The position numbers and the translations under genes were made by a program. From the NCBI GenBank assembly GCA_029855935.1, contig JAGSHN010000025.1:32001-96000 (forward strand): 64,000 bases of DNA, in the 5' to 3' direction. Source of the stretch: Candidatus Thorarchaeota archaeon (GTDB lineage Archaea; Asgardarchaeota; Thorarchaeia; Thorarchaeales; Thorarchaeaceae). How positions within the stretch are numbered: position 1 is the stretch's first letter; the number at the start of each line of letters is the position of its first letter. Of the stretch, positions 5,817 to 62,931 are shown piece by piece. The notes under the pieces are model-generated. The model saw only the letters and a program-made list of their open reading frames with translations, did not search any database and was not told the DNA's origin.

Positions 5817-5838
5817 GTAGTTGGAAGGTGGTGAGAGA

Positions 5839-8025
5839 ATGAGCGAGCGAAAGGTGAGGCTCAAGGTCGCGGCGGCGATGCCGCGTGATCAGGGCAGATT
5901 TGTTGTGAGACTCAACGGAGAAGTCAGAAAAAAGCTGGGAATCAGTTCGGGAGACTACGTGCTACTCAAAGGCGCAAAGGAGACCGTAGCCGTCTGCTGG
6001 CCAGCCCTCCCTGAGGACGAGGTTCTCGAGATAGTGAGAATGGACGGTCTCATCCGTCAGAACGCAGGTGTCAAGCTCGGCGAGATGGTGGAGATCAGCC
6101 CAATCAATGTTCCGGAGGGCACCAGGGTTGTCCTCGCACCCAGCCAGCCAGTGAGGTTCCAGCGCGGCTTCGAGGAGTACGTCAAGCATCAGATAATGAA
6201 CAAGCCTGTCACGAGGGGGGACATCATAATGATTGCCTCTATCGGGCAGGGTCTGCAGTTCACGGTGACCGCAGCAGCACCAAGCAAGCATGTCAGGATT
6301 GGTCCTAAGACGACTGTCGAGGTGCTGACCAAACCAGCAAGGCCCGAGGAGGTTGCCGTCCCGCAGGTGACCTACGAGGACATTGGTGGCCTCGGGAAAG
6401 AGCTGCAGAAGATTCGCGAGATGATCGAGCTTCCCATGAAGAGCCCCGAGCTGTTCAAGAGGCTGGGGATAACTCCTCCAAAGGGAGTGCTGCTGTACGG
6501 CCCGCCAGGCACAGGCAAGACTCTGATAGCCAAGGCTGTTGCCAACGAGTCAGGTGCGACGTTCAAGGCGATCAATGGCCCAGAGATAATGTCCAAGTTC
6601 TACGGGGAGTCCGAGCAGAAGCTCCGCGAGGTGTTCGAGGAGGCTGAGAAGAACGCGCCAAGTATCATCTTCATTGATGAGCTCGACAGCATAGCGCCAA
6701 AGCGGGCTGAGGTAACTGGCGAGGTCGAGCGCAGAGTGGTTGCGCAGCTTCTGTCACTGATGGATGGACTTGCTGCTCGTGGCCAGGTCATCGTCATCGG
6801 CGCGACGAATCGACCTGACGATGTCGATGAGGCACTGAGACGTCCCGGTAGGTTCGACAGAGAGATCGAGATTCCAGTGCCCGACAAGAAAGGTCGCTTG
6901 GAGATCCTGCAGATTCACACAAGGTCTATGCCCCTGGAGGAGGGGCTGGATCTTGAGAAGCTGGCGGCACGGACACACGGCTTCGTCGGTGCAGACCTGG
7001 CCGCACTTGCGCGAGAGGCAGCAATGCAGGCCCTCAGGCGCGCACTGCCATATGTGGACCCTGAGACAGGCGACATCCCACCCGATGTGCTGAGCAATCT
7101 CTACGTCACAGAAGAGGACTTCGAGAAGGCACTTGCGGAGGTATCTCCGTCAGCGCTGCGCGAGGTCTTGGTTGAGAAGCCGAATGTCCACTGGGACGAT
7201 GTCGGTGGTCTGAAGAAGGTCAAGGAGCAGCTACGTGAGGCCGTCGAGGCGCCCCTGAAGTATCCCCACGTCTTCGAGCAGATGGGCATACGTCCGCCCA
7301 AGGGAGTCCTGCTCTTCGGTCCGCCTGGTACGGGCAAGACCCTCCTTGCAAAGGCGGTGGCAACGGAGAGCGAGGCGAACTTCATCTCAATCAGAGGACC
7401 CGAGATATTCAACAAGTACGTCGGTGAGTCTGAGAAAGCCATCCGGGAGATATTCAAGAAGGCGCGTCAGACAGCCCCGTGCGTACTGTTCTTCGACGAG
7501 ATAGACGCCATAATGAGCGCCCGTGGCCTCCGCGACGAGACCGGTGTCACACAGCGCATCGTGAACCAGTTTCTTGCGGAGCTGGACGGGATGCAGGCTC
7601 TGCGTAACGTACTCGTCATAGGTGCCACCAATAGGGCAGACATTCTTGACCCGGCAGTGCTACGGCCCGGCAGGTTCGACACGATAGTCTTCGTGCCTCC
7701 TCCCGACAGAGATGCAAGGGTGGAGATCCTCAAGGTTCACACGAGGAACATGCCCCTGGCCGATGATGTCGACCTCGCTGCGATCGCCGACAAGACAGAG
7801 GGCTTCTCCGGGGCGGACCTTGAGAACCTGTGCCGTGAGGCAGCAATGGCTGCCGTCAGGACCGACTGGAAGGTCAAGCCCGTACGGATGGAGCACTTTG
7901 AGATGGCCCTGAAGGAGGTGCGACCCAGCATCTCGCCAGAGGACATGAAGAGGTTTGAGGCGATGGCAGAGGTTGTCCTGAAACGGGACACGGGCCGGAA
8001 GGCAGAGCCCGCTGCGTACGTATGA
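5839..8025 (+). CDS. cdc48: CDC48/VCP (p97) family AAA+ ATPase
   Basis: N-domain plus two AAA modules (GPPGTGKT twice; IFIDELD and LFFDEID; RRPGRFD and LRPGRFD); C-terminal AYV HbYX-type motif. Confidence 0.97.
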
Positions 8026-8060
8026 ACGGACGGGTCTCAGCCTGAAGACTAGGAGGAAAT

Positions 8061-8110
8061 GCCAGCGGCGAGAACGGCCGTTGGCCCCTCCCCATCTTCC
8101 TCTCTTTTTC
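8061..8110 (+). terminator. Hairpin plus pyrimidine/U5 terminator after cdc48
   Basis: GCCAGCGGC/GCCGTTGGC stem followed by CCCATCTTCCTCTCTTTTTC. Confidence 0.55.
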
Positions 8111-8201
8111 CCACGCATTCCCTCTCCGGGTGAGATGAAATATCCCTATAAGGGAGAGTTCTAGTCGCTACAGTGCACGGTACTAGGGAGTGACACTGGC
8201 T

Positions 8202-10871
8202 ATGAGTCTCCGATGGGTCGTCAACCTCTGTCCGTTCCTCCACTTCGAGAACTCCGGTGTGAAGGACTACGAACACAATGTGAGCATTGCCTCTTGGAAC
8301 CTGAAGAGTTTTCTCGACTTTCTAGACGCGGACGAGTCGCACAGATTCTGCGTGGGTCAGGTCACACTTCTTGAGGGGTTCAAGAGGCTATTCCCCAACT
8401 ACTGGGACAAACTACACGAGGCCGTCCTCAAGGGACGTGTGGAGATTGTCGGCGGAGCCTACGTGATGCCAGACTTTGTCATCCCTGATGGAGAGTCCAT
8501 CGTGAGGCAGTTCCAGTACGGGCTGAGATTCATCCGCGAGGAGCTCGGGGTCGATGTCCGCACAGGTTGGGCAATAGACTCATCCGGCCAGTGCTCGCAG
8601 CTCCCTCAGATTCTCAGGCAGTGCGGTATTGATACCTTGTTTTTCTGGAGAGGCATGCCCCATGATGCGCCAACAGAATTCGTCTGGAAGGGCCTCGACA
8701 AGAGCAGAGTGAACGCTGTCTGGCTCGCAGCAGGATACGACCTCGCAGCGTGGCTCTCCGAGAACATCCGAGAGGCCTTCTCGACCTTGCTTGACATCAT
8801 CGAGAGGCTCGGTCCGCGTGCAGCCTCTCATAATCTGTTCGTCCCCGTCGGGGGAGCCCTCGTGCCACCGCCGCCTCATCTTGTGGATATTGTTCGAGAG
8901 TGGAACCGCGCATTCGCAGATATGCGAGCCGTCGTGGTAACGCCACGGGAGTTCGCAGACAAGGTACGCTCAGTTCAGTCCAAGCTATCAACGATTGCGG
9001 GGCCACTGATCAGCGGCCGGTTTGCCCCGGTCCGACTGGGCGGACTGAGCTCGCGAGTCCGGCTGAAGATTCTCAATCGCAGGCTTGAAACTCTGCTCTA
9101 CCTTGTCGAGCTGTATCTAGCCCTCAGCCAAGACAGGTCAAGAGCCACCGAGCTTGACAGCCTCTGGAAGATCCTTCTGTTCAATCAGGACCACAACATC
9201 ATCAGAGGTGTCATTGCGGACGGCCCTTATCAGCAGGCCCTGCGACGCTACGAACAAGCCATCAGTCAGGCGGAAGAGATCCTGGCAGACGCTGTCCCAA
9301 GGGCTGTCTCCGGACTGGTGGAGGGCGACGAGGGACTTTCAATAGTCGTCACCAACCCGGTGGGGTGGTCAAGAGATGGCATCGTCCGGGTGGAGATTGA
9401 CAAGTCTGCGATGGAATGTGACATCTTTCAGATAGTGGACTCCAGGGGCGTGTCGGTACCATATCAGATAGCCAACAGCAGAGATGACGGTACAGTGGAG
9501 GTCATCTTTGTCGCGTCTGGAGTGCCGAGTCTAGGTCACGAGGTCTTCACTGTCGCCCCCTGTGAGGAGGGACCCGAGTTCGAGACGTCAATCAAGACTG
9601 GTCCTAACTGGGTCGAGAACGACCGTTATGTGATAGAGTTTGACACATTCAGTGGGGCAGTGACACGCATTCTTGACAAGTGCAATCAGTTCGAGGTGCT
9701 GAGGGGACCCGGCAACTACATCCTCCTTGAGAACGACGTTGGTGATCTCTATCGCTACGACCGGAGCGACCTCGCACCGAGTCATCACGACCTGACCAGT
9801 CTCCGGACATCAGGCAATATCGAGATTGTCGAGAGCGGTCCTGTGAGAGCGGTCGTCAAGGTGACAGGTAAGGTCGGCCAGTGCACGAGAACCCAACTGG
9901 TCACAGTGTATCACGGTATCGACAGGATAGATTTCGAGACCACGATAGACTTCGATGGGCAGGACCAGAGAGTCTCGGTGGAGTTCCCGCTGACGGTGTT
10001 CACAGACAGGGTCACAGTGGGTGCACCCTTTGCCGCTGAGTCGAGAAACACCGGGGGCAACGACAGTGACTGGAGCGAGCCTAATGGTGGTGTGTTCCCA
10101 GCGCTGGACTGGGTGGATTGCACTGGCCCAGAGTATGGTGTGACCCTCATCGTGTTTGGACTTCACGAGTTCTCTTTCAGAGATGGTGTTCTGAAGATGA
10201 CTCTATTTCGCAGCGTGGACCATCTATCTCGTGGTCTTGATGACGAGGTCGTGGAGACAGACCTGAGCAGGGAGAGAGGGAGTCACAGGTTCACCTATTC
10301 ACTGCGACCACACGCCGGCGACTGGCGCGAGAGTCAGACGTGGCGGGCGGCAACGGAACACAGGCTCCCTCTAATTGCAGTTCTCAGGACAGGTCATTTG
10401 CGCTCAGGCGGTGAGCCGCTCTCTATGCTGACAATCTCTGGGGTGGATCTCGTTGTCTCCAGCATCCGTCCCGGCAACCGAGACGATGAGATTCTCCTAC
10501 GACTGTACGAGCCCGCAGGCGAAGATGGCGTGACAAGGCTGACGTTTGCAAGACCAGTCGATAGTGCGGTGTTGGTCGACTTCAGGGACCACGACATAGG
10601 TGAGCTACCTGTGGACGATTCGACTGTAACTGTGCCTGTCGATGGGTACTCCATCATAACGCTGAGAGTCAAATTGAAGAGCGCCCCACCCGCGACAATG
10701 AGGAGAGGCGAAATGACCTTCGAGGCAGGAACTGAAACGCACGCCGAGGAAACTGCCGCGAAGGAAACAGCTGGGGATGAGCGGACAGCAGAAGAAACCG
10801 AAGTGGCAAAAGAAACTGGGTCGTCCGAGGAAGATACTGGGCCAACACCAGAGCACACTGGGACGGGTTAG
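8202..10871 (+). CDS. GH38 alpha-mannosidase-like protein with altered active-site residues and acidic tail
   Basis: VEIVGGAYVMPD..IPDGESIVRQ, GWAIDSSG, FVWKGLD, LLFNQDHNIIRG, C-terminal LLRLYE. Alternative GTG start at 8190. Confidence 0.88.
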   Translation: MSLRWVVNLCPFLHFENSGVKDYEHNVSIASWNLKSFLDFLDADESHRFCVGQVTLLEGFKRLFPNYWDKLHEAVLKGRVEIVGGAYVMPDFVIPDGESIVRQFQYGLRFIREELGVDVRTGWAIDSSGQCSQLPQILRQCGIDTLFFWRGMPHDAPTEFVWKGLDKSRVNAVWLAAGYDLAAWLSENIREAFSTLLDIIERLGPRAASHNLFVPVGGALVPPPPHLVDIVREWNRAFADMRAVVVTPREFADKVRSVQSKLSTIAGPLISGRFAPVRLGGLSSRVRLKILNRRLETLLYLVELYLALSQDRSRATELDSLWKILLFNQDHNIIRGVIADGPYQQALRRYEQAISQAEEILADAVPRAVSGLVEGDEGLSIVVTNPVGWSRDGIVRVEIDKSAMECDIFQIVDSRGVSVPYQIANSRDDGTVEVIFVASGVPSLGHEVFTVAPCEEGPEFETSIKTGPNWVENDRYVIEFDTFSGAVTRILDKCNQFEVLRGPGNYILLENDVGDLYRYDRSDLAPSHHDLTSLRTSGNIEIVESGPVRAVVKVTGKVGQCTRTQLVTVYHGIDRIDFETTIDFDGQDQRVSVEFPLTVFTDRVTVGAPFAAESRNTGGNDSDWSEPNGGVFPALDWVDCTGPEYGVTLIVFGLHEFSFRDGVLKMTLFRSVDHLSRGLDDEVVETDLSRERGSHRFTYSLRPHAGDWRESQTWRAATEHRLPLIAVLRTGHLRSGGEPLSMLTISGVDLVVSSIRPGNRDDEILLRLYEPAGEDGVTRLTFARPVDSAVLVDFRDHDIGELPVDDSTVTVPVDGYSIITLRVKLKSAPPATMRRGEMTFEAGTETHAEETAAKETAGDERTAEETEVAKETGSSEEDTGPTPEHTGTG

Positions 10872-44889: not shown

Positions 44890-47280
44890 TCACTCACTCA
44901 GGCATCTCCGTATTCTCTGACTCTGCACGACCTCCCTCACAGCATCACGCACATCGGAACGCGTGGCGACCGACTCAATCGTGTCAGCCGTGTCGGACCC
45001 GTCCTTAGCATATGAGGACAGTAGCTGGTGCAGTCTATCATCATCCGAGAGATAGAGCTCATAGACCAAGGCATCAGCAAGATCATCTAGCGCTCCGAAT
45101 GTTTTCGATGACACAACAGCTTGATCCGCCACTCGGGCCAGTCTGTGCAAGGCACGACCGATCAGGCTGTAGACCTTAGGGTTGGGTGGTGTGGCGACCG
45201 GCAGATCCTCCATCATTCCCGTGTTCAGACAGGTGGTGAGCTGGGAGCGATTGGTCAGGAACTGCACGCACACGTTCCTTATCAATCGAGAGTTGAGAAT
45301 GACCGCAAGGCCATAGGCATCGAGCGGCAGTCCGCTATGTCTGACTCTCACAAGGCCTCCGCCGTGAATCATCCCCTGCGGTTTCACGACACATCGAGGA
45401 TAGGGCAGATTCTTGGTCGCAACTAGGAACTCGTTCTCAAACGACACCCTCAGCAGGCGGTCATCGTGGAACGACCAGTCAGTGTAGTTGAGGTGACTGT
45501 TGTTGAACACATAGCGCCCACTGCTCCTGCCGGTGGAAGCATATGGCACGGGAAACTCGTCCGATTGTCTCACCGATACATGACGGCGGGGGATGTCGCG
45601 GCCACGGCTTGCACTGAGCACTCCGGTTCTTCCAGCGGAGAGAATGCGCTCAAAGACATCGTCGGCATATATCACCATCACGTTGCCTCTGAAGAGCAAG
45701 TCACGACTAACGGTGGCGACACGCCGAACTCCAGGACGCCGCGACAATACTCGAACTGAGGACGGCCTCTCGGAAGGAACGGCGCTGGCGTAGAGCGTCA
45801 CCACCTCAAGGGTCACCCCATCAAAGAGAGCACCCTCGTCGGTTATTTGCCACAGGGTGAGATGGTCTCTCACAAAATGGCGCGTCTTAGCGAACTGTCG
45901 GGTTCTCAGAAGACTGTTGGGCAGTAGCAGGCCCAGTTGTCCTGAGCTGTTGAGCAGCATCTTCGACCGAAGAATGAACAGCGATGCACTGTTCCACGTC
46001 CCGGTCCGCCCGCCACTGACTGACCATGGATACTCTGTGCTGATGTACTCACGTTCGCAGCGGCTCGTGACATTCCCATATGGAGGATTCGAGATCACAA
46101 CGTCAAAGCCCGGGTCAGAACGATTCATCACGTGAGGAAAGGTACGCGGCCAGTCGAGAGGCCTGCTCATCGCATCCGCCGATGCCTGCTCCTCGTGGGA
46201 ATGAACGTGCCGTCCGACAAGCGAGTTACCGACAGCGAGGTTCACAGGTAGGTGACGAGGAAGAGGGCCTTGAGTGTGGCTCAGCGCCCAGAGACGCAAC
46301 CGTACTGTTGAGCATCTCACTGCTGACTCATGTATGTCGACTCCATAGAGGTTCCGGCGGAGTATGGTCACTGGAAGCGATCCATCCATCTCCTCTGTGG
46401 ACCTCGATAGAAGGGAGAGGAGCCAGCTAGCAGCCGCCTCCAGAAAGACTCCTCCACCCAAGGCTGGGTCGAGCACGGTCACCGAGGCCAGGAGCTCCGT
46501 CTGAGCTGTGCGGGGGACCGGCCGAGGGGGCCACAAGGAGGGGGGCTCCTCACCGGTAAGTGTGTGATCAGGGGCCGTAGCGCCAATAGCGATGTTGGCC
46601 CAACGTGAGAGCACCGTTGCCGATATCTCGCGAGCGATGGCCTCAGGAGTGTAGAAGGTCCCTGTCGAACGGTTATGCGATCTCCACCTTCTCGCGACAA
46701 CGCGGAGCGCATTGGACACATCGCTCCCGACCACGGACGCCGCGGACAGAACAGGCAGATACGTCTCGTGCAGGACCTGAAACGGCGAGAGCGACAGGGA
46801 CCACCGTGGCGCAGAACACAGCACATCTCGCACCGTGCGAACAAAGTCGGAGATCACGTGTCGAGAGAGATGGACTGGTCCGGTTGGCTGAGGAATACCC
46901 TCGTAGACGATGCCGATGAGCTCACACGGAGAGAGGCCGTATTGTGCGCTGTCAACAAGGTCTGAGCCTGTACCGTACAGCGCGTCGAGAATCTCATCGG
47001 CGGAGAATGGGCCCATCTCGATCTCCTGAAGTAAGTGATACTGGCCCTCCGAGCCCGTGTGGCCCGCCGATTCTAGAAGGCCTGCGCCTATTGAATACAG
47101 TAAGACGAAGAGCCTCTCAGCAATATCGTGGGCCACGACGATGCTGTCGCCAATTGGGAGCGAATCACCCAGTGCCGTGACAATGCGAAGTCGTGCACGG
47201 CTCAGGCTGTGCCCAACAGCGGATGATGGCCGTGCACGGGAATACAATGAACTCTCTGCACACGACCTCACCACGCGCAT
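44890..47280 (-). CDS. N6-adenine DNA methyltransferase (Eco57I/TaqI-like); start uncertain
   Basis: GTFYTP, VLDPALGGGVFL, LYGVDI, GNSL, FDVVISNPPY, ILNSRL in a TaqI_C-like region. Confidence 0.85.
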   Translation of the reverse strand: MRVVRSCAESSLYSRARPSSAVGHSLSRARLRIVTALGDSLPIGDSIVVAHDIAERLFVLLYSIGAGLLESAGHTGSEGQYHLLQEIEMGPFSADEILDALYGTGSDLVDSAQYGLSPCELIGIVYEGIPQPTGPVHLSRHVISDFVRTVRDVLCSAPRWSLSLSPFQVLHETYLPVLSAASVVGSDVSNALRVVARRWRSHNRSTGTFYTPEAIAREISATVLSRWANIAIGATAPDHTLTGEEPPSLWPPRPVPRTAQTELLASVTVLDPALGGGVFLEAAASWLLSLLSRSTEEMDGSLPVTILRRNLYGVDIHESAVRCSTVRLRLWALSHTQGPLPRHLPVNLAVGNSLVGRHVHSHEEQASADAMSRPLDWPRTFPHVMNRSDPGFDVVISNPPYGNVTSRCEREYISTEYPWSVSGGRTGTWNSASLFILRSKMLLNSSGQLGLLLPNSLLRTRQFAKTRHFVRDHLTLWQITDEGALFDGVTLEVVTLYASAVPSERPSSVRVLSRRPGVRRVATVSRDLLFRGNVMVIYADDVFERILSAGRTGVLSASRGRDIPRRHVSVRQSDEFPVPYASTGRSSGRYVFNNSHLNYTDWSFHDDRLLRVSFENEFLVATKNLPYPRCVVKPQGMIHGGGLVRVRHSGLPLDAYGLAVILNSRLIRNVCVQFLTNRSQLTTCLNTGMMEDLPVATPPNPKVYSLIGRALHRLARVADQAVVSSKTFGALDDLADALVYELYLSDDDRLHQLLSSYAKDGSDTADTIESVATRSDVRDAVREVVQSQRIRRCLSE

Positions 47281-57806: not shown

Positions 57807-59015
57807 TCACCATAGCTGGTACTCGCGCTTGACGAAGCCCTTCCAGACATGTGGAAGCGTCTCGACGACCTCGGCGGCGATGCTCTCAATTGAGCTTCGT
57901 ACGGCATTGAGGTCCACGTTTCCGAAGACCTCGATATTCAGCGCCTTCGGTTCGGTGATTGGAGCCCCAATCTGACTGACGATATAGCAGTAGACCTGCT
58001 CGATGTCCGGATACTCCTTTGTGATCCTTGTGACTATCTCGCGGGCCGCGACATTGTAGGTCTTTCCGACGTGGGAGACCGGATTCTTCCCAGCCGCAGC
58101 CTCAAGCGTCATCGGCCTGTATGGAGTGATGAGACCATTGGCCCTGTTGCCGCGTCCGACCTGGCCATCATCTCCGTGCTCGGCAGAGGTGCCAGTGACA
58201 GTCAGATAGAACAGGCCCTGCTCTGGGTCGTCGGCCGTGTTGACATCCACCTCGACGGGAATGTCCGTCTTCTTTGCAGCAAGATCAAGCAGCATGTTCC
58301 TGATGGCGTCCATCACGTTGGCGTACTCGTCAGCGTCGCGGGTCTCGGTGGAGATTATGGCGGTTGCAACCTGCAGATGTATATGGTCCCCAACACGGGT
58401 GCCCATCACCTTGATGTCCTCACCAATCTGGGGCCACTTTCTCTTTGTCGCGGGGTCGTTGAGCAGCTGTTCTGACTCAAGTACAATCTGTTCCGTCGGT
58501 GACAGAGGGGCGTATGCAACGCCGAAGCTGGTGTCGTTCGCGCGCGGTACTTCGACCTCGGCATCGAAATTGCCCACAAGGTCCGTGCTGCCAGCTCGAA
58601 TCTTGTAGTCGATGATGATGTCTGAGTTGACATCAAGATGCGGTAGGTCCTCGCTGAGCCACTCTCTCGTGTGCTCGACCGCGAACTTTCCAACGGGCAC
58701 CTGTCGGCTGTAGTCCTTGCCGACAACGTCGACGGCACGTCCGCTGAGGAGCAGGTAGATGGGCTCGATGACATCACCGCCACCGAACCGAGCATTCGAC
58801 TGACCACCGACGAGGAGCACCTTGTCAACATTATGGTGCTGGACTCGTCCAAAGGTCTCAAGATAGTATTCGCTGAGTCGGACTGACAGCTCCTCCGCTG
58901 CTTTGTCGCAGAGAGTGTCGGGGTGGCCCTTCCCCTTGCGTTCTACGATCTCGACCTTTCTCTTGGCCACAGGGAGGCCGTCTCCTCGTGTGACTTCAAT
59001 CTTCATTTTCATCAA
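57807..59015 (-). CDS. mat: Archaeal S-adenosylmethionine synthetase
   Basis: [52 protein letters not shown]. Confidence 0.96.
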
Positions 59016-59134: not shown

Positions 59135-59674
59135 ATGAGGGTGCTCCCAGAGACCATTACACGAATGCGGAAACGAAGAGGAATGACTCAGGCCGAGCTG
59201 GCACGGGCCGTAGGAGTGTCGCAGGCATACATTGCCAGGCTTGAGAACGGCACACTTGATCCCAAGCTGTCCGTCGTCAATAGAATACTCGACGTCCTTG
59301 AGGGATCAACACTGACGTGTGCCGACGTGATGAGCACCAACCTCGTTGTTGCCGATGCTCGCGACTCCGCACTGGAGGTCGTCCGCGACATGCTGAGGAA
59401 TGGGTTCTCTCAGATCCCGGTATTGCGCGCGGGAAAGATTGTGGGGATGGTCACCGAGAGGGACGTGGTGCGGAACATAACACGTGACCTCGAGCAGATG
59501 TCGGTGCAGGCAATAATGGAGACGGTGAGCCCTCCGCTGGTCGACGAGCGGACAAAGATAGAGGAGGTCATCGCGCTGCTAGACACCTTTCAGGCAGTGC
59601 TCGTCCATCGCGGTGGCAGACTCGTTGGCATAGTTGCAAGGTCAGACATAATGCGAGCGCTGGCGCTGGACTGA
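59135..59674 (+). CDS. XRE-HTH transcriptional regulator with C-terminal CBS pair (COG3620-like)
   Basis: MTQAELARAVGVSQAYIARLENG..DP HTH; FSQIPV and LVGIVARSD CBS motifs. Confidence 0.92.
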   Translation: MRVLPETITRMRKRRGMTQAELARAVGVSQAYIARLENGTLDPKLSVVNRILDVLEGSTLTCADVMSTNLVVADARDSALEVVRDMLRNGFSQIPVLRAGKIVGMVTERDVVRNITRDLEQMSVQAIMETVSPPLVDERTKIEEVIALLDTFQAVLVHRGGRLVGIVARSDIMRALALD

Positions 59675-59696: not shown

Positions 59697-60356
59697 TCAA
59701 GATGAGAATACCTTGCGCGAGAACAGGTTGACGTCAATGCCGACCTTGCCCGCAAAGAGATCACGCAACAGTTCGAGGTGTTCGTCAATCTCTTTCAGAA
59801 GGCGCTCCAGTGAGTGCGGGGAGATATTCGGCTCTGCTGTCCAGACAGTGAGGTAGTTGCTGACGACGCCTATGTCGACACCGCCCTCCTCAAGGTCCTT
59901 GAAGATGGTTATCTTGACAAGGAACTCGGACTCGTACATATTGAGGACCTCGTTGGCACTCATCACTATCAGGTCCAGATAGCCAACTATGTCCTCCAGG
60001 ACTTGGACATCGCCGACATTTCCACGGAGGCTCTCGACAAAGGTCTGAATCCGGCTGACCCGCTGTCGGAGACCCTCGAACATCTTCATCAGCTTGGTAA
60101 ACTCCTTGATTGAGGACTCCAGTGCGGGGACAAGCCTATCGTACAGAGTGACGAGGAGCTTCCCCCGTGTGTTATCGCGGATGTCCTGGAATCCCTCTAG
60201 TTTCCCCAGGGGTCCATCAAGGTGTTCAATCTGAACCAGTGTGTTGGTGACGGCCTGAATAGACTTGACTGAACTGCGCTGAATCTTGGCCCATCTCTCA
60301 ATGAAAGTATCAATGCCCTCTCGTAGGTCCTCAAGCTCGTCCAGCGGGTCGTCCAC
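59697..60356 (-). CDS. Helical protein resembling the CINP/C1orf109 family
   Basis: RWAKIQ, NMYESEFLVKITIFKDL and YLTVWTAEPNI motifs; amphipathic helices. Confidence 0.6.
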   Translation of the reverse strand: MDDPLDELEDLREGIDTFIERWAKIQRSSVKSIQAVTNTLVQIEHLDGPLGKLEGFQDIRDNTRGKLLVTLYDRLVPALESSIKEFTKLMKMFEGLRQRVSRIQTFVESLRGNVGDVQVLEDIVGYLDLIVMSANEVLNMYESEFLVKITIFKDLEEGGVDIGVVSNYLTVWTAEPNISPHSLERLLKEIDEHLELLRDLFAGKVGIDVNLFSRKVFSS

Positions 60357-60450
60357 AGCTCATTCTCCAAGACCTTCTGTCAACTCTCCACATATAACTT
60401 ATTCTGCGGTGGCAGCAGATATTAACGCTCTTAACGGCGTCAGAGGCCAT

Positions 60451-62055
60451 CTACAGGCCCTGTTGCAACGCCCTACGGCGGTTCTCAAGCTCCTCAATCT
60501 CGGCCTCTATCTCCCGGACCTGATCTTGAAATATCGAGTCCTCAATCTTTCCGTCCTCGTAGAGCCTCTTGAAGTGGTCGAGCTTGGCCCTAAGAACCGA
60601 CTCTCGCACCTCAAGCTCCCTCAACCGTGCCCGCTTCTCAGACACGAGCTGCCTCAGCTCGTCCTCAAGCCTGAATATCTCCTCCTCAAGCTCGGCCTTC
60701 AATCTGGAGTAGAGAGAGGAGTCAACCTTTCCCTCAGTGTAGAGGTCTACGAGATGGAGGAGCGCCTTTCTCGTTGCATCTCGTCGAGCCATTATCTCCT
60801 GTGCGAAGTCGTGGGACTCTACAAGACCGAGCCGCGTAGCAAGGTGTGGGGTCGTCAGACCCTGCAGAAGCAGACTTGTCATCAGAACGAGAAAGACAAT
60901 GGCATTCAGATCCCGGCCCGACTGCTCAAAGCCGGTGATCTCGTAGCTCGTTATCGCAGCCACGACGATTGCTGCCAACGCTGCACTTGCAACCCCCTTG
61001 ACCCCTGCCCAGCTGACAAAGAACCTGTCCCGCCACGACATACTTCTGTCGTGGGCTGTGACAAGGAACACAGCCACCGGGCGGGCGACGAGGATGACCA
61101 GTACCGATGTCATCAGGCCAAGGGCCACAATGGCAGGACTGTTCATCAGATACTGCAGGTCCACAGTGGCGCCAAGGAGTATGAAGACCACTATCTCGAA
61201 AGCGAAGGAGACGTTCTTCATAGCGCCGCGCATCGACTTCTGCGGGAGGGGCTCCATACCCATCCGCCGGGCATTAGCCATAAAGATCCCTGCGAAGACC
61301 GACGCGAGTGCACCAGGATGAATGCCGAGCTGAGCAAAGATCTCTCCGAGACCGTAGGCAAGGATTGGTGTCGTGGCTGTCAGGATGGAGATGGTCGTGT
61401 CCTCAGCCGTACGGATGATGATTCGACCGATGACGTGAGCAATGGCAAATCCAGTCACGACACCAATTATCATGCTCAGAAGGAACTCCTCGATGATGAC
61501 GTACCAGGCCACCGAGAGAGCGGGAATCACGAGCGGCATAAAGACAGTGATGACAAGGACCACAGACGTCGCGTCATTGAATACTGCTTCGCCCTCAAGA
61601 ATAGAGAACAGGCGGCGCTTGACACGTACACCACCAGACTCCAGAACAGAGAACAGCGCAGCAGGGTCGGTGGGCGACAAGATCGCGCCGATGACAAAGG
61701 CCATCAGGCCCATTGCCGAGAACAGCCCAATGGTGATGCCGGCGACTATCGACGTGATGACGACACCCAGAGTTGCCAGGAGCATGACATTAGTCAGCGA
61801 GAACCGCAGCTCTCGGATATTCATCGTCAGCCCAGCATAGAACAGTACAGCCGCAAGTGTCAGCTGCGCAACAACATCCAAGCCCACAACCTCGCCGTAG
61901 ACCGATCCGAGCGGCATCACCTGACCAATGATGACGCCAGCGAGGATGAGCGGGATTGGGTACGGGAACCGATATCTCTCCGCGAATTTTGCTATCACCA
62001 CGCCCCCAATCAGGACGGGCGCAATCACGTAGAGGTCGACGGCCACACCATCCAC
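60451..62055 (-). CDS. CPA1 Na+/H+ antiporter with C-terminal coiled/SHOCT-like tail
   Basis: LFYAGL, LSPTDPAA, LEGEAVFND, ARPVAV, WAGVKG, LQGLT. Confidence 0.92.
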   Translation of the reverse strand: MDGVAVDLYVIAPVLIGGVVIAKFAERYRFPYPIPLILAGVIIGQVMPLGSVYGEVVGLDVVAQLTLAAVLFYAGLTMNIRELRFSLTNVMLLATLGVVITSIVAGITIGLFSAMGLMAFVIGAILSPTDPAALFSVLESGGVRVKRRLFSILEGEAVFNDATSVVLVITVFMPLVIPALSVAWYVIIEEFLLSMIIGVVTGFAIAHVIGRIIIRTAEDTTISILTATTPILAYGLGEIFAQLGIHPGALASVFAGIFMANARRMGMEPLPQKSMRGAMKNVSFAFEIVVFILLGATVDLQYLMNSPAIVALGLMTSVLVILVARPVAVFLVTAHDRSMSWRDRFFVSWAGVKGVASAALAAIVVAAITSYEITGFEQSGRDLNAIVFLVLMTSLLLQGLTTPHLATRLGLVESHDFAQEIMARRDATRKALLHLVDLYTEGKVDSSLYSRLKAELEEEIFRLEDELRQLVSEKRARLRELEVRESVLRAKLDHFKRLYEDGKIEDSIFQDQVREIEAEIEELENRRRALQQGL

Positions 62056-62056
62056 C

Positions 62057-62677
62057 TCAGTAGTCGATCAGGACCTCAGCAATCTCCTTCAGTGAGTCGG
62101 AGATGTGCTCCATCTCACTCACGATCTTTCTCATTATGTAGCAGACGAAGGTGGAGTCACCGCCCGTGGCCACTGAGACCTGTCGACAGATGACAATATT
62201 GTCCTCGTCTATCTCACGCTCCAGACGCATCACCGCCTGGTACGACTCGGTGGCCGACTCTGGGTCCTCTACAGTCGAGGCGAGTGCAGTTCCGAGGGCC
62301 TTGAACTGAGAGTTGACCTTTGATGCGATGGCCGACAGGGAGTCCATATACACCTCTTGGAACGAACCGCCCCGAATCATGTCTATCATCACAACAACCA
62401 GAGAGAACGAGTACTCGATACGCAGCAGATGACTGATGACAGAGAGGACCAGCACTCCTGTCTCGTCCTGAGGTAGCCTGTCACTGAACGCGTAGCGAGA
62501 TACAAGGTCCTTGAGGCGGTCAAGAATCCTCTCGCGTTTGTCCGACCACTCTGGATCCTCGACTCCGCACTCACGGCAGAGCTTTGCACTGACCACCTCA
62601 CTAATGTCACTGAGCTGTGAAACTATGTCTGACAGGTAGGAGAGAATCTCCGTTCGTGCAAGGTCCCGGGTTGTCAC
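62057..62677 (-). CDS. PhoU/DUF47-like helical protein
   Basis: RLEREIDE and EMEHISD motifs; coupled to the antiporter gene. Confidence 0.6.
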   Translation of the reverse strand: MTTRDLARTEILSYLSDIVSQLSDISEVVSAKLCRECGVEDPEWSDKRERILDRLKDLVSRYAFSDRLPQDETGVLVLSVISHLLRIEYSFSLVVVMIDMIRGGSFQEVYMDSLSAIASKVNSQFKALGTALASTVEDPESATESYQAVMRLEREIDEDNIVICRQVSVATGGDSTFVCYIMRKIVSEMEHISDSLKEIAEVLIDY

Positions 62678-62931
62678 TCCTCTGTCACCTCCTCACGCGG
62701 CCGCGACCACGAGAGATCTATTCGTAGGTGGATGAATTGCCTCCTGAAGCTGACCTCGATGCCCGTCTCAACGGGCTCTCCCAGGGGGAGCGCGATGGTA
62801 CCTTCTTTCATGCTCGGCATCGGCAGTTCGAGAACGTCACCGTTCCGGAGTTGCTCTGCGATTGCCGCGAAGAGTTCGCTCAGGCTGAGGAGGGTCTTCT
62901 CCTCTTCAAACTCATAGTCGTCGATTCGCAT
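62674..62931 (-). CDS. Amphi-Trp domain protein
   Basis: FEEE.......ELFAAIAEQLRNG...LRIDLSW; 85 aa. Confidence 0.7.
   Translation of the reverse strand: MRIDDYEFEEEKTLLSLSELFAAIAEQLRNGDVLELPMPSMKEGTIALPLGEPVETGIEVSFRRQFIHLRIDLSWSRPREEVTEE

Follow-up and report, generated by a model that had tools for sequence, protein, structure and literature searches.

The window analysed here, a 64,000-nucleotide stretch of a Candidatus Thorarchaeota archaeon genome (contig JAGSHN010000025.1, positions 32,001 to 96,000), carries at 59697-60356 on its reverse strand a gene for a helical protein that we call CINPL (CINP/C1orf109-like). With little room for doubt, CINPL is the Thorarchaeota representative of the CINP-like proteins of Asgard archaea, that is, a homologue of CINP and, at greater distance, of C1orf109/AIRIM (AFG2-interacting ribosome maturation factor), since sequence-profile, Pfam, language-model and fold comparisons all indicate these two proteins. 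By analogy with its eukaryotic relatives, CINPL may act on a Cdc48-type AAA+ unfoldase, and for identity and mechanism taken together we estimate a probability of roughly 0.5.

Homology of CINPL to CINP and C1orf109

Downstream of an in-frame TGA, the GTG is the first possible start codon, and orthologues share this start position, their proteins beginning with MDDP... or similar. Compared with 29 orthologues, 13-23% of the non-synonymous sites differ (pN 0.13-0.23), whereas changes at synonymous sites have nearly reached saturation; where computable, dN/dS (the ratio of non-synonymous to synonymous substitution rates) is ~0.04-0.11; this low non-synonymous change next to synonymous near-saturation marks CINPL as a real protein under strong purifying selection. 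An AlphaFold2 model is all-helical (predicted local distance difference test score, pLDDT, 85; predicted template modelling score, pTM, 0.79), with long helices at residues 4-46, 54-111, 118-157, 162-173 and 180-201. The preliminary description of this open reading frame (ORF) as a 219-residue helical protein with an N-terminal W-xx-I-Q and a characteristic C-terminal block stands, apart from the spacer inside the block, which has 12 residues (EEGGVDIGVVSN) and not 11. The N-terminal motif, at residues 22-26, reads WAKIQ, and the C-terminal block, LNMYESEFLVKITIFKDL...YLTVWTAEPNI, begins at residue 138. W22 is invariant across Asgard lineages, I137, M140, E142, W172, E175 and P176 are each at least 90% conserved, and residues 138-178 are the portion most conserved with CINP (human: LEMYRKELLLK ... 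YLSMWLHQPYV). Judged from these alignments, WAKIQ and the C-terminal block are a conserved family core and not a chance resemblance.

The length of the protein, ~215 residues in this family, varies at one site. In the same-genus relatives P0035/P0039 (G313:C1:1404629-1405339 and G314), ~37 additional residues are inserted between long helices two and three; CINPL of the window lacks them (site at residue ~115, window position ~60010), and P0131 and P0144 from other lineages also bear insertions there. As insertions recur between these two helices, we regard the loop as variable and the family as rigid elsewhere.

The sequence evidence for homology comes from two profiles. A profile built from Thorarchaeota sequences alone (A1) was searched against 1.84 billion representative proteins and retrieved only 27 clusters, consisting of other Asgard lineages and one further protein, P0147. 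Among the named matches, which comprise P0137/P0157 (E 1.3e-8) and P0143 (E 4.9e-6) with a Hodarchaeota label, P0124 and P0127 of Asgardarchaeia, and P0131 and P0138 of Promethearchaeota, there is no non-Asgard prokaryote. P0147, reached at E 7.9e-5, matches human CINP at E 2.6e-24 and is, by its sequence, a true eukaryotic CINP orthologue, thereby forming a bridge that links the Thorarchaeota sequences to human CINP. P0147/P0161 is encoded by an intronless gene at 8001-8702 on the 401-kb contig L001 (ENA ERZ25878582), whose gene calls are very sparse and prokaryote-style; its source is probably a microbial eukaryote in the metagenome. A homologue search seeded with P0147 returned P0147 alone, and in searches with the Asgard profile the matches were taken up by Thorarchaeota sequences.

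Searches against PDB sequences gained in strength with the breadth of the query. The single CINPL sequence found four CINP entries as best matches at E ~0.03, A1 found CINP at E 9e-4, and an Asgard-only profile (A3) aligned over almost its full length with human CINP (positions 6-182 of 209 to 5-180 of 196; E 4.7e-9, 39 bits), pairing the helix-1 W and the motifs MY..E...K and YL..W...P. The match of A3 to human C1orf109 was weak (E 0.019, 17.7 bits). Thus the relationship to CINP and, more distantly, to C1orf109 that the preliminary description had suggested is borne out, including a significant full-length match in the profile comparison it proposed, at only ~15-18% identity between archaeal CINPL and human CINP, the 55LCC adaptor of SPATA5-SPATA5L1 (PDB 8cih, 8rhn, 9lgo, 9gwj).

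The only Pfam family matched was PF15011 (C1orf109-like, CA109-like), to which C1orf109/AIRIM and plant OPENER belong, and an NCBIfam search of CINPL gave nothing meaningful. CINPL of the window scores 24.0 bits (E 3.9e-5) and thus falls below the PF15011 gathering cut-off of 27, which counts against the assignment; the cut-off is passed by 11 of 17 non-Thorarchaeota Asgard relatives (35-54 bits), and many Thorarchaeota orthologues bear a precomputed PF15011 match. P0147, too, matches only PF15011 (26.4 bits). It follows that the Pfam version used here lacks a CINP-specific model within reach of P0147 and that a PF15011 match reports membership of the superfamily, not orthology to C1orf109. 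The same holds for the ESM Atlas feature search, in which the nearest neighbours were eukaryotic PF15011 clusters (score 0.94, 22 of 100 hits), as this family does not discriminate between the two proteins. At the level of structure, CINPL, with about five long helices in its bundle, can be superposed on CINP and C1orf109, and a Foldseek search against the PDB returned chains of these two proteins almost exclusively among its top matches, making them the closest natural folds; in the ESM Atlas shape search, every row had a template modelling (TM) score below 0.5.

Occurrence in Asgard archaea and relation to published work

Using an Asgard-wide profile for the proposed phyletic survey, we found the gene in 129 of 400 Asgard genomes, practically always as a single copy, with second matches being fragments. 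The genome of the window (2.97 Mb, 97% complete) has one copy. Carriage is high in the window's own family (79 of 85 genomes) and in several others (21/22, 17/19, 5/5, 2/2, 1/1 and 1/1 genomes), and homologues at 62-78% identity nearly all carry the Thorarchaeota label. The same profile did not find CINPL in many other Asgard families, e.g., in none of the 135 genomes of one large family and none of the 31 of another; about 8 families are positive in all, as against about 25 negative ones. One family has a sole, weak match (G297:C24:79292-79720; E 4e-5, 22.8 bits), which spans two thirds of the profile from its N-terminal end within a 1171-residue open frame and represents either a false match or a divergent form in fusion. 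With one copy per genome and no second paralog for a heterodimer, only a homo-oligomer is possible; unlike human CINP, archaeal CINPL has no encoded heterodimer partner.

The existence of this family has been reported before. In a study by Koestlbacher et al. (bioRxiv 10.1101/2024.07.03.601958, July 2024; Nat Microbiol, March 2026, PMC12962969), CINP is presented as previously without a known prokaryotic homologue; the authors detect it in five major clades of Asgard archaea but not in any other prokaryotes and show a tree in which the eukaryotic CINPs are monophyletic and adjoin Hodarchaeales. CINPL of the window belongs to this published family: A1 reaches its Hodarchaeota-, Asgardarchaeia- and Promethearchaeota-labelled members, and the phyletic pattern is the same, with several Asgard clades and no named non-Asgard prokaryote match. 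Because 79 of 85 genomes carry the gene here, Thorarchaeia is almost certainly among the five clades. The earlier suggestion of a possibly unreported eukaryotic signature protein is therefore superseded, and since Asgard CINP relatives are already published, the remaining value lies in the function of the protein and its relation to C1orf109, not in its discovery. Outside its reference list, that paper mentions neither C1orf109 nor SPATA5/Cdc48, so that a connection with both adaptors and with a partner ATPase, as drawn here, does not belong to the published account. Furthermore, a 2025 cryo-electron microscopy paper terms CINP a 'human-specific factor' (PMC12019325), a label at odds with the plant homologues OAP1/OPNR (PMC12332008) and with the Asgard family.

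A partnership with Cdc48, its alternatives and the ancestry of the family

In humans, CINP-C1orf109 dimers bind the N-domains of SPATA5 and SPATA5L1 and line the funnel of the N-ring as its inner wall; the funnel above the ATPase rings consists of two T-shaped CINP-C1orf109 heterodimers and six N-domains (four of SPATA5 and two of SPATA5L1), and one SPATA5 N-domain docks at the T-junction, contacting both adaptors (PMC12019325, PMC11055677). The plant equivalent comprises OPNR and OAP1, the counterparts of C1orf109 and CINP, together with CIP111 and CDC48D and acts on the Rlp24 homologue (PMC12332008). As the complex is common to humans and plants, the arrangement is older than the plant-animal split. 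In eukaryotes, the tail of Rlp24/RPL24C enters the adaptor pore, and its archaeal counterpart is the C-terminal tail of L24e. By analogy, CINPL would be a homo-oligomer seated on the N-domain ring of a Cdc48-type AAA+ unfoldase with two rings and act there as a substrate-selecting adaptor or lid, its substrate possibly being a ribosomal or replication protein. We hold this mechanism tentatively, at somewhat less than even odds.

The candidate partner in the window, which the preliminary description had placed at 5839-8025, is a canonical Cdc48 by domain content, with its ORF listed from 5821. It is one of exactly two double-ring Cdc48 paralogs in this genome, the other being G000:C14:46901-49099; the two are 59% identical overall and 46% in their N-domains, and at this identity an E-value threshold is unable to separate the two orthogroups. 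Across the Thorarchaeota family, orthologues of the window Cdc48 (N-domain identity 51-80%) separate cleanly from the second paralog. The proposed multimer prediction was carried out with two copies of CINPL (28-row alignment) and the N-domain of the window Cdc48 (25-row alignment of clean orthologues), and it scored the contact to the Cdc48 N-domain, not the CINPL dimer. The score was 0.35 (runs 0.35, 0.21 and 0.37), compared with at most 0.02 in each of three controls; agreement between runs extends to at least 34% of contacts, and the pLDDT of the partner is at least 77. In calibration, 58 of the 80 solved complexes cleared the pass mark, as against 2 of the 110 mismatched pairs, and passes at scores of 0.60 or below comprised only 7 of the 80 solved complexes plus both passing mismatches. 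The prediction thus lies above its controls and, measured by this calibration, points only weakly to a contact between CINPL and the Cdc48 N-domain. N-domain binding by archaeal CINPL is accordingly a weakly predicted property, in contrast to that of human CINP.

Several observations weigh against such a partnership. The target of the eukaryotic complex, the Rlp24/Rpl24 placeholder pair, is the product of a eukaryotic duplication. Yeast Drg1/AFG2 is described as a homohexamer that binds Rlp24 via its own N-termini, unlike the cofactor-capped human and plant complexes (PMC12332008). With regard to the complex prediction, a pass at 0.35 is, by the calibration, wrong in the majority of cases unless the pairing had been likely beforehand, and since a similar complex has already been solved (55LCC), the pass may reflect likeness to it and not binding. 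In the gene neighbourhoods of 16 loci from eight Asgard families and of the window, no AAA+ ATPase gene adjoins CINPL; the only cluster common to all compared loci is the CINPL gene itself, and its neighbours outside the Thorarchaeota family and its sister family are unrelated housekeeping genes (e.g., for phosphoglucomutase, HypF, RNA cyclase, a THUMP methyltransferase and a tRNA synthetase). Finally, CDC48_N proteins occur in 2-7 copies in every Asgard genome that is at least 90% complete, with or without CINPL. Considering that Cdc48 is universal and CINPL patchy (0/135 and 0/31 in the two families named above), Cdc48 works without CINPL in most Asgard families.

These points make a second reading about as credible as the adaptor model, namely that CINPL is a true member of the family that works independently of Cdc48 in archaea, e.g., as a free helical scaffold for a ribosomal, replication or other factor, and that the association with an AAA+ ATPase arose in the eukaryotic stem. 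The patchy occurrence of CINPL beside a universal Cdc48, the lack of an adjoining AAA+ gene in any lineage compared and the weakness of the complex prediction all favour it, as do other contacts of human CINP, which directly binds GTPBP4 and the ribosomal RNA segment ES27A (PMC12019325), both parts of the eukaryotic pre-60S particle, and which was first described as an interactor of CDK2 and the replication complex (PMC12962969). It is opposed by the fact that in animals and plants both members of the family belong constitutively to the SPATA5-type complex, and by the predicted interface with the Cdc48 N-domain, which scores well above all three controls. We therefore place the adaptor-of-Cdc48 model and the Cdc48-independent reading roughly level.

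A functional linkage of CINPL and Cdc48 was also considered on the grounds of their shared contig, on which the two genes lie 40-75 kb apart in several Thorarchaeota genomes (~52 kb here), and was rejected, as this is macro-synteny.

Regardless of mechanism, the place of the Asgard protein relative to the two eukaryotic adaptors has to be considered. It is plausible that Asgard CINPL stands for a single pre-duplication ancestor of CINP and C1orf109, because the gene is present in one copy in the 129 positive genomes, it resembles both proteins, and CINP and C1orf109 have the same number of helices (PMC12019325). The much stronger similarity to CINP (39 vs 17.7 bits with A3) counts against this ancestry and favours the alternative that the Asgard gene is the CINP orthologue specifically, with C1orf109 of separate or older origin and its Asgard counterpart lost or undetected. 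The published tree is in line with this alternative, placing the monophyletic eukaryotic CINPs beside Hodarchaeales (PMC12962969), and the PF15011 matches do not discriminate between the proteins, since the CINP orthologue P0147 matches only this family. On the whole, we consider a specific CINP orthologue to be less likely than not. A generic coiled coil or helical bundle, resembling CINP and C1orf109 by chance or composition, has a negligible probability and was rejected as an identity for CINPL, given the retrieval of P0147 among 1.84 billion proteins by a Thorarchaeota-only profile, the match of P0147 to human CINP, the collinear full-length A3 match to CINP (E 4.7e-9) with its shared W, MY..E...K and YL..W...P, the relatives passing the curated PF15011 cut-off and the independent publication of the homology.

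Genomic setting and significance

The positions of CINPL, its motifs, the candidate partner and the neighbouring genes are listed in Table 1. CINPL is separated from three upstream genes on the same strand by a 94-bp gap, in which the TATA-like hexamer TTATAT and a GGAG 9-12 nt upstream of the GTG (read by eye) may represent the gene's own putative promoter and ribosome-binding site. The first of the three genes encodes a Na+/H+ exchanger that bears a ~100-residue coiled coil at its C-terminus, with a weak CdvA-like match (23 bits vs a cut-off of 30), followed by a PhoU-domain protein and an 85-residue protein with a sub-threshold amphi-Trp match. On the other side, a convergent gene for a regulator with an Xre-type helix-turn-helix (HTH) domain and tandem CBS domains ends 22 bp from the CINPL stop codon; its synteny and that of the S-adenosylmethionine (SAM) synthetase gene with CINPL is confined to the Thorarchaeota family and its sister family. 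Two further genes of the window are unrelated to CINPL, an alpha-mannosidase gene directly downstream of the Cdc48 gene and a restriction-modification methylase gene.

Table 1 Positions of CINPL, its motifs and other features in the window
Feature	Position	Strand	Basis or remark
CINPL gene	59697..60356	-	ORF listing; GTG start, 219 aa, predicted long-helix bundle
Codons for W22-A-K-I-Q26, helix-1 motif	60279..60293	-	W22 invariant in the whole Asgard family; aligns with W of human CINP 'KWE'
Codons for residues 138-178	59823..59945	-	LNMYESEF..K block, 12-residue spacer and YLTVWTAEPNI; profile alignments
TTATAT, TATA-box-like hexamer	60392..60397	-	36-41 nt upstream of GTG; read by eye
Cdc48 paralog 1 of 2	5821..8025	+	CDC48_N, CDC48_2, two AAA domains; candidate partner only
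SAM synthetase	57807..59015		Archaeal type
HTH-CBS regulator	59135..59674	+	HTH_3 and tandem CBS
Three upstream genes	60451..62931	-	First is the Na+/H+ exchanger
PhoU-domain protein	62057..62677	-	Second upstream gene
85-aa protein	62674..62931	-	Third upstream gene
Alpha-mannosidase	8190..10871	+	GH38
Methylase	44890..47280	-	Eco57I-type

Combining the more favourable views on mechanism and ancestry, a homo-oligomeric CINPL lid on one Cdc48 paralog would be an archaeal forerunner of the 55LCC/OPENER complex, and CINP and C1orf109 would have split in the eukaryotic stem alongside the split of SPATA5 and SPATA5L1, a scenario that we rate as quite unlikely at present. In eukaryotes, late 60S maturation, including Rlp24/RSL24D1 release, and replisome proteostasis both depend on the SPATA5/SPATA5L1 unfoldase capped by CINP and C1orf109, and mutations of this unfoldase occur in neurodevelopmental disease. 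As an archaeal relative of CINP exists, the adaptor predates eukaryotes, and having a single adaptor gene beside two Cdc48 paralogs, this archaeon offers a simpler system in which the origin of AAA+ substrate adaptors may be studied.
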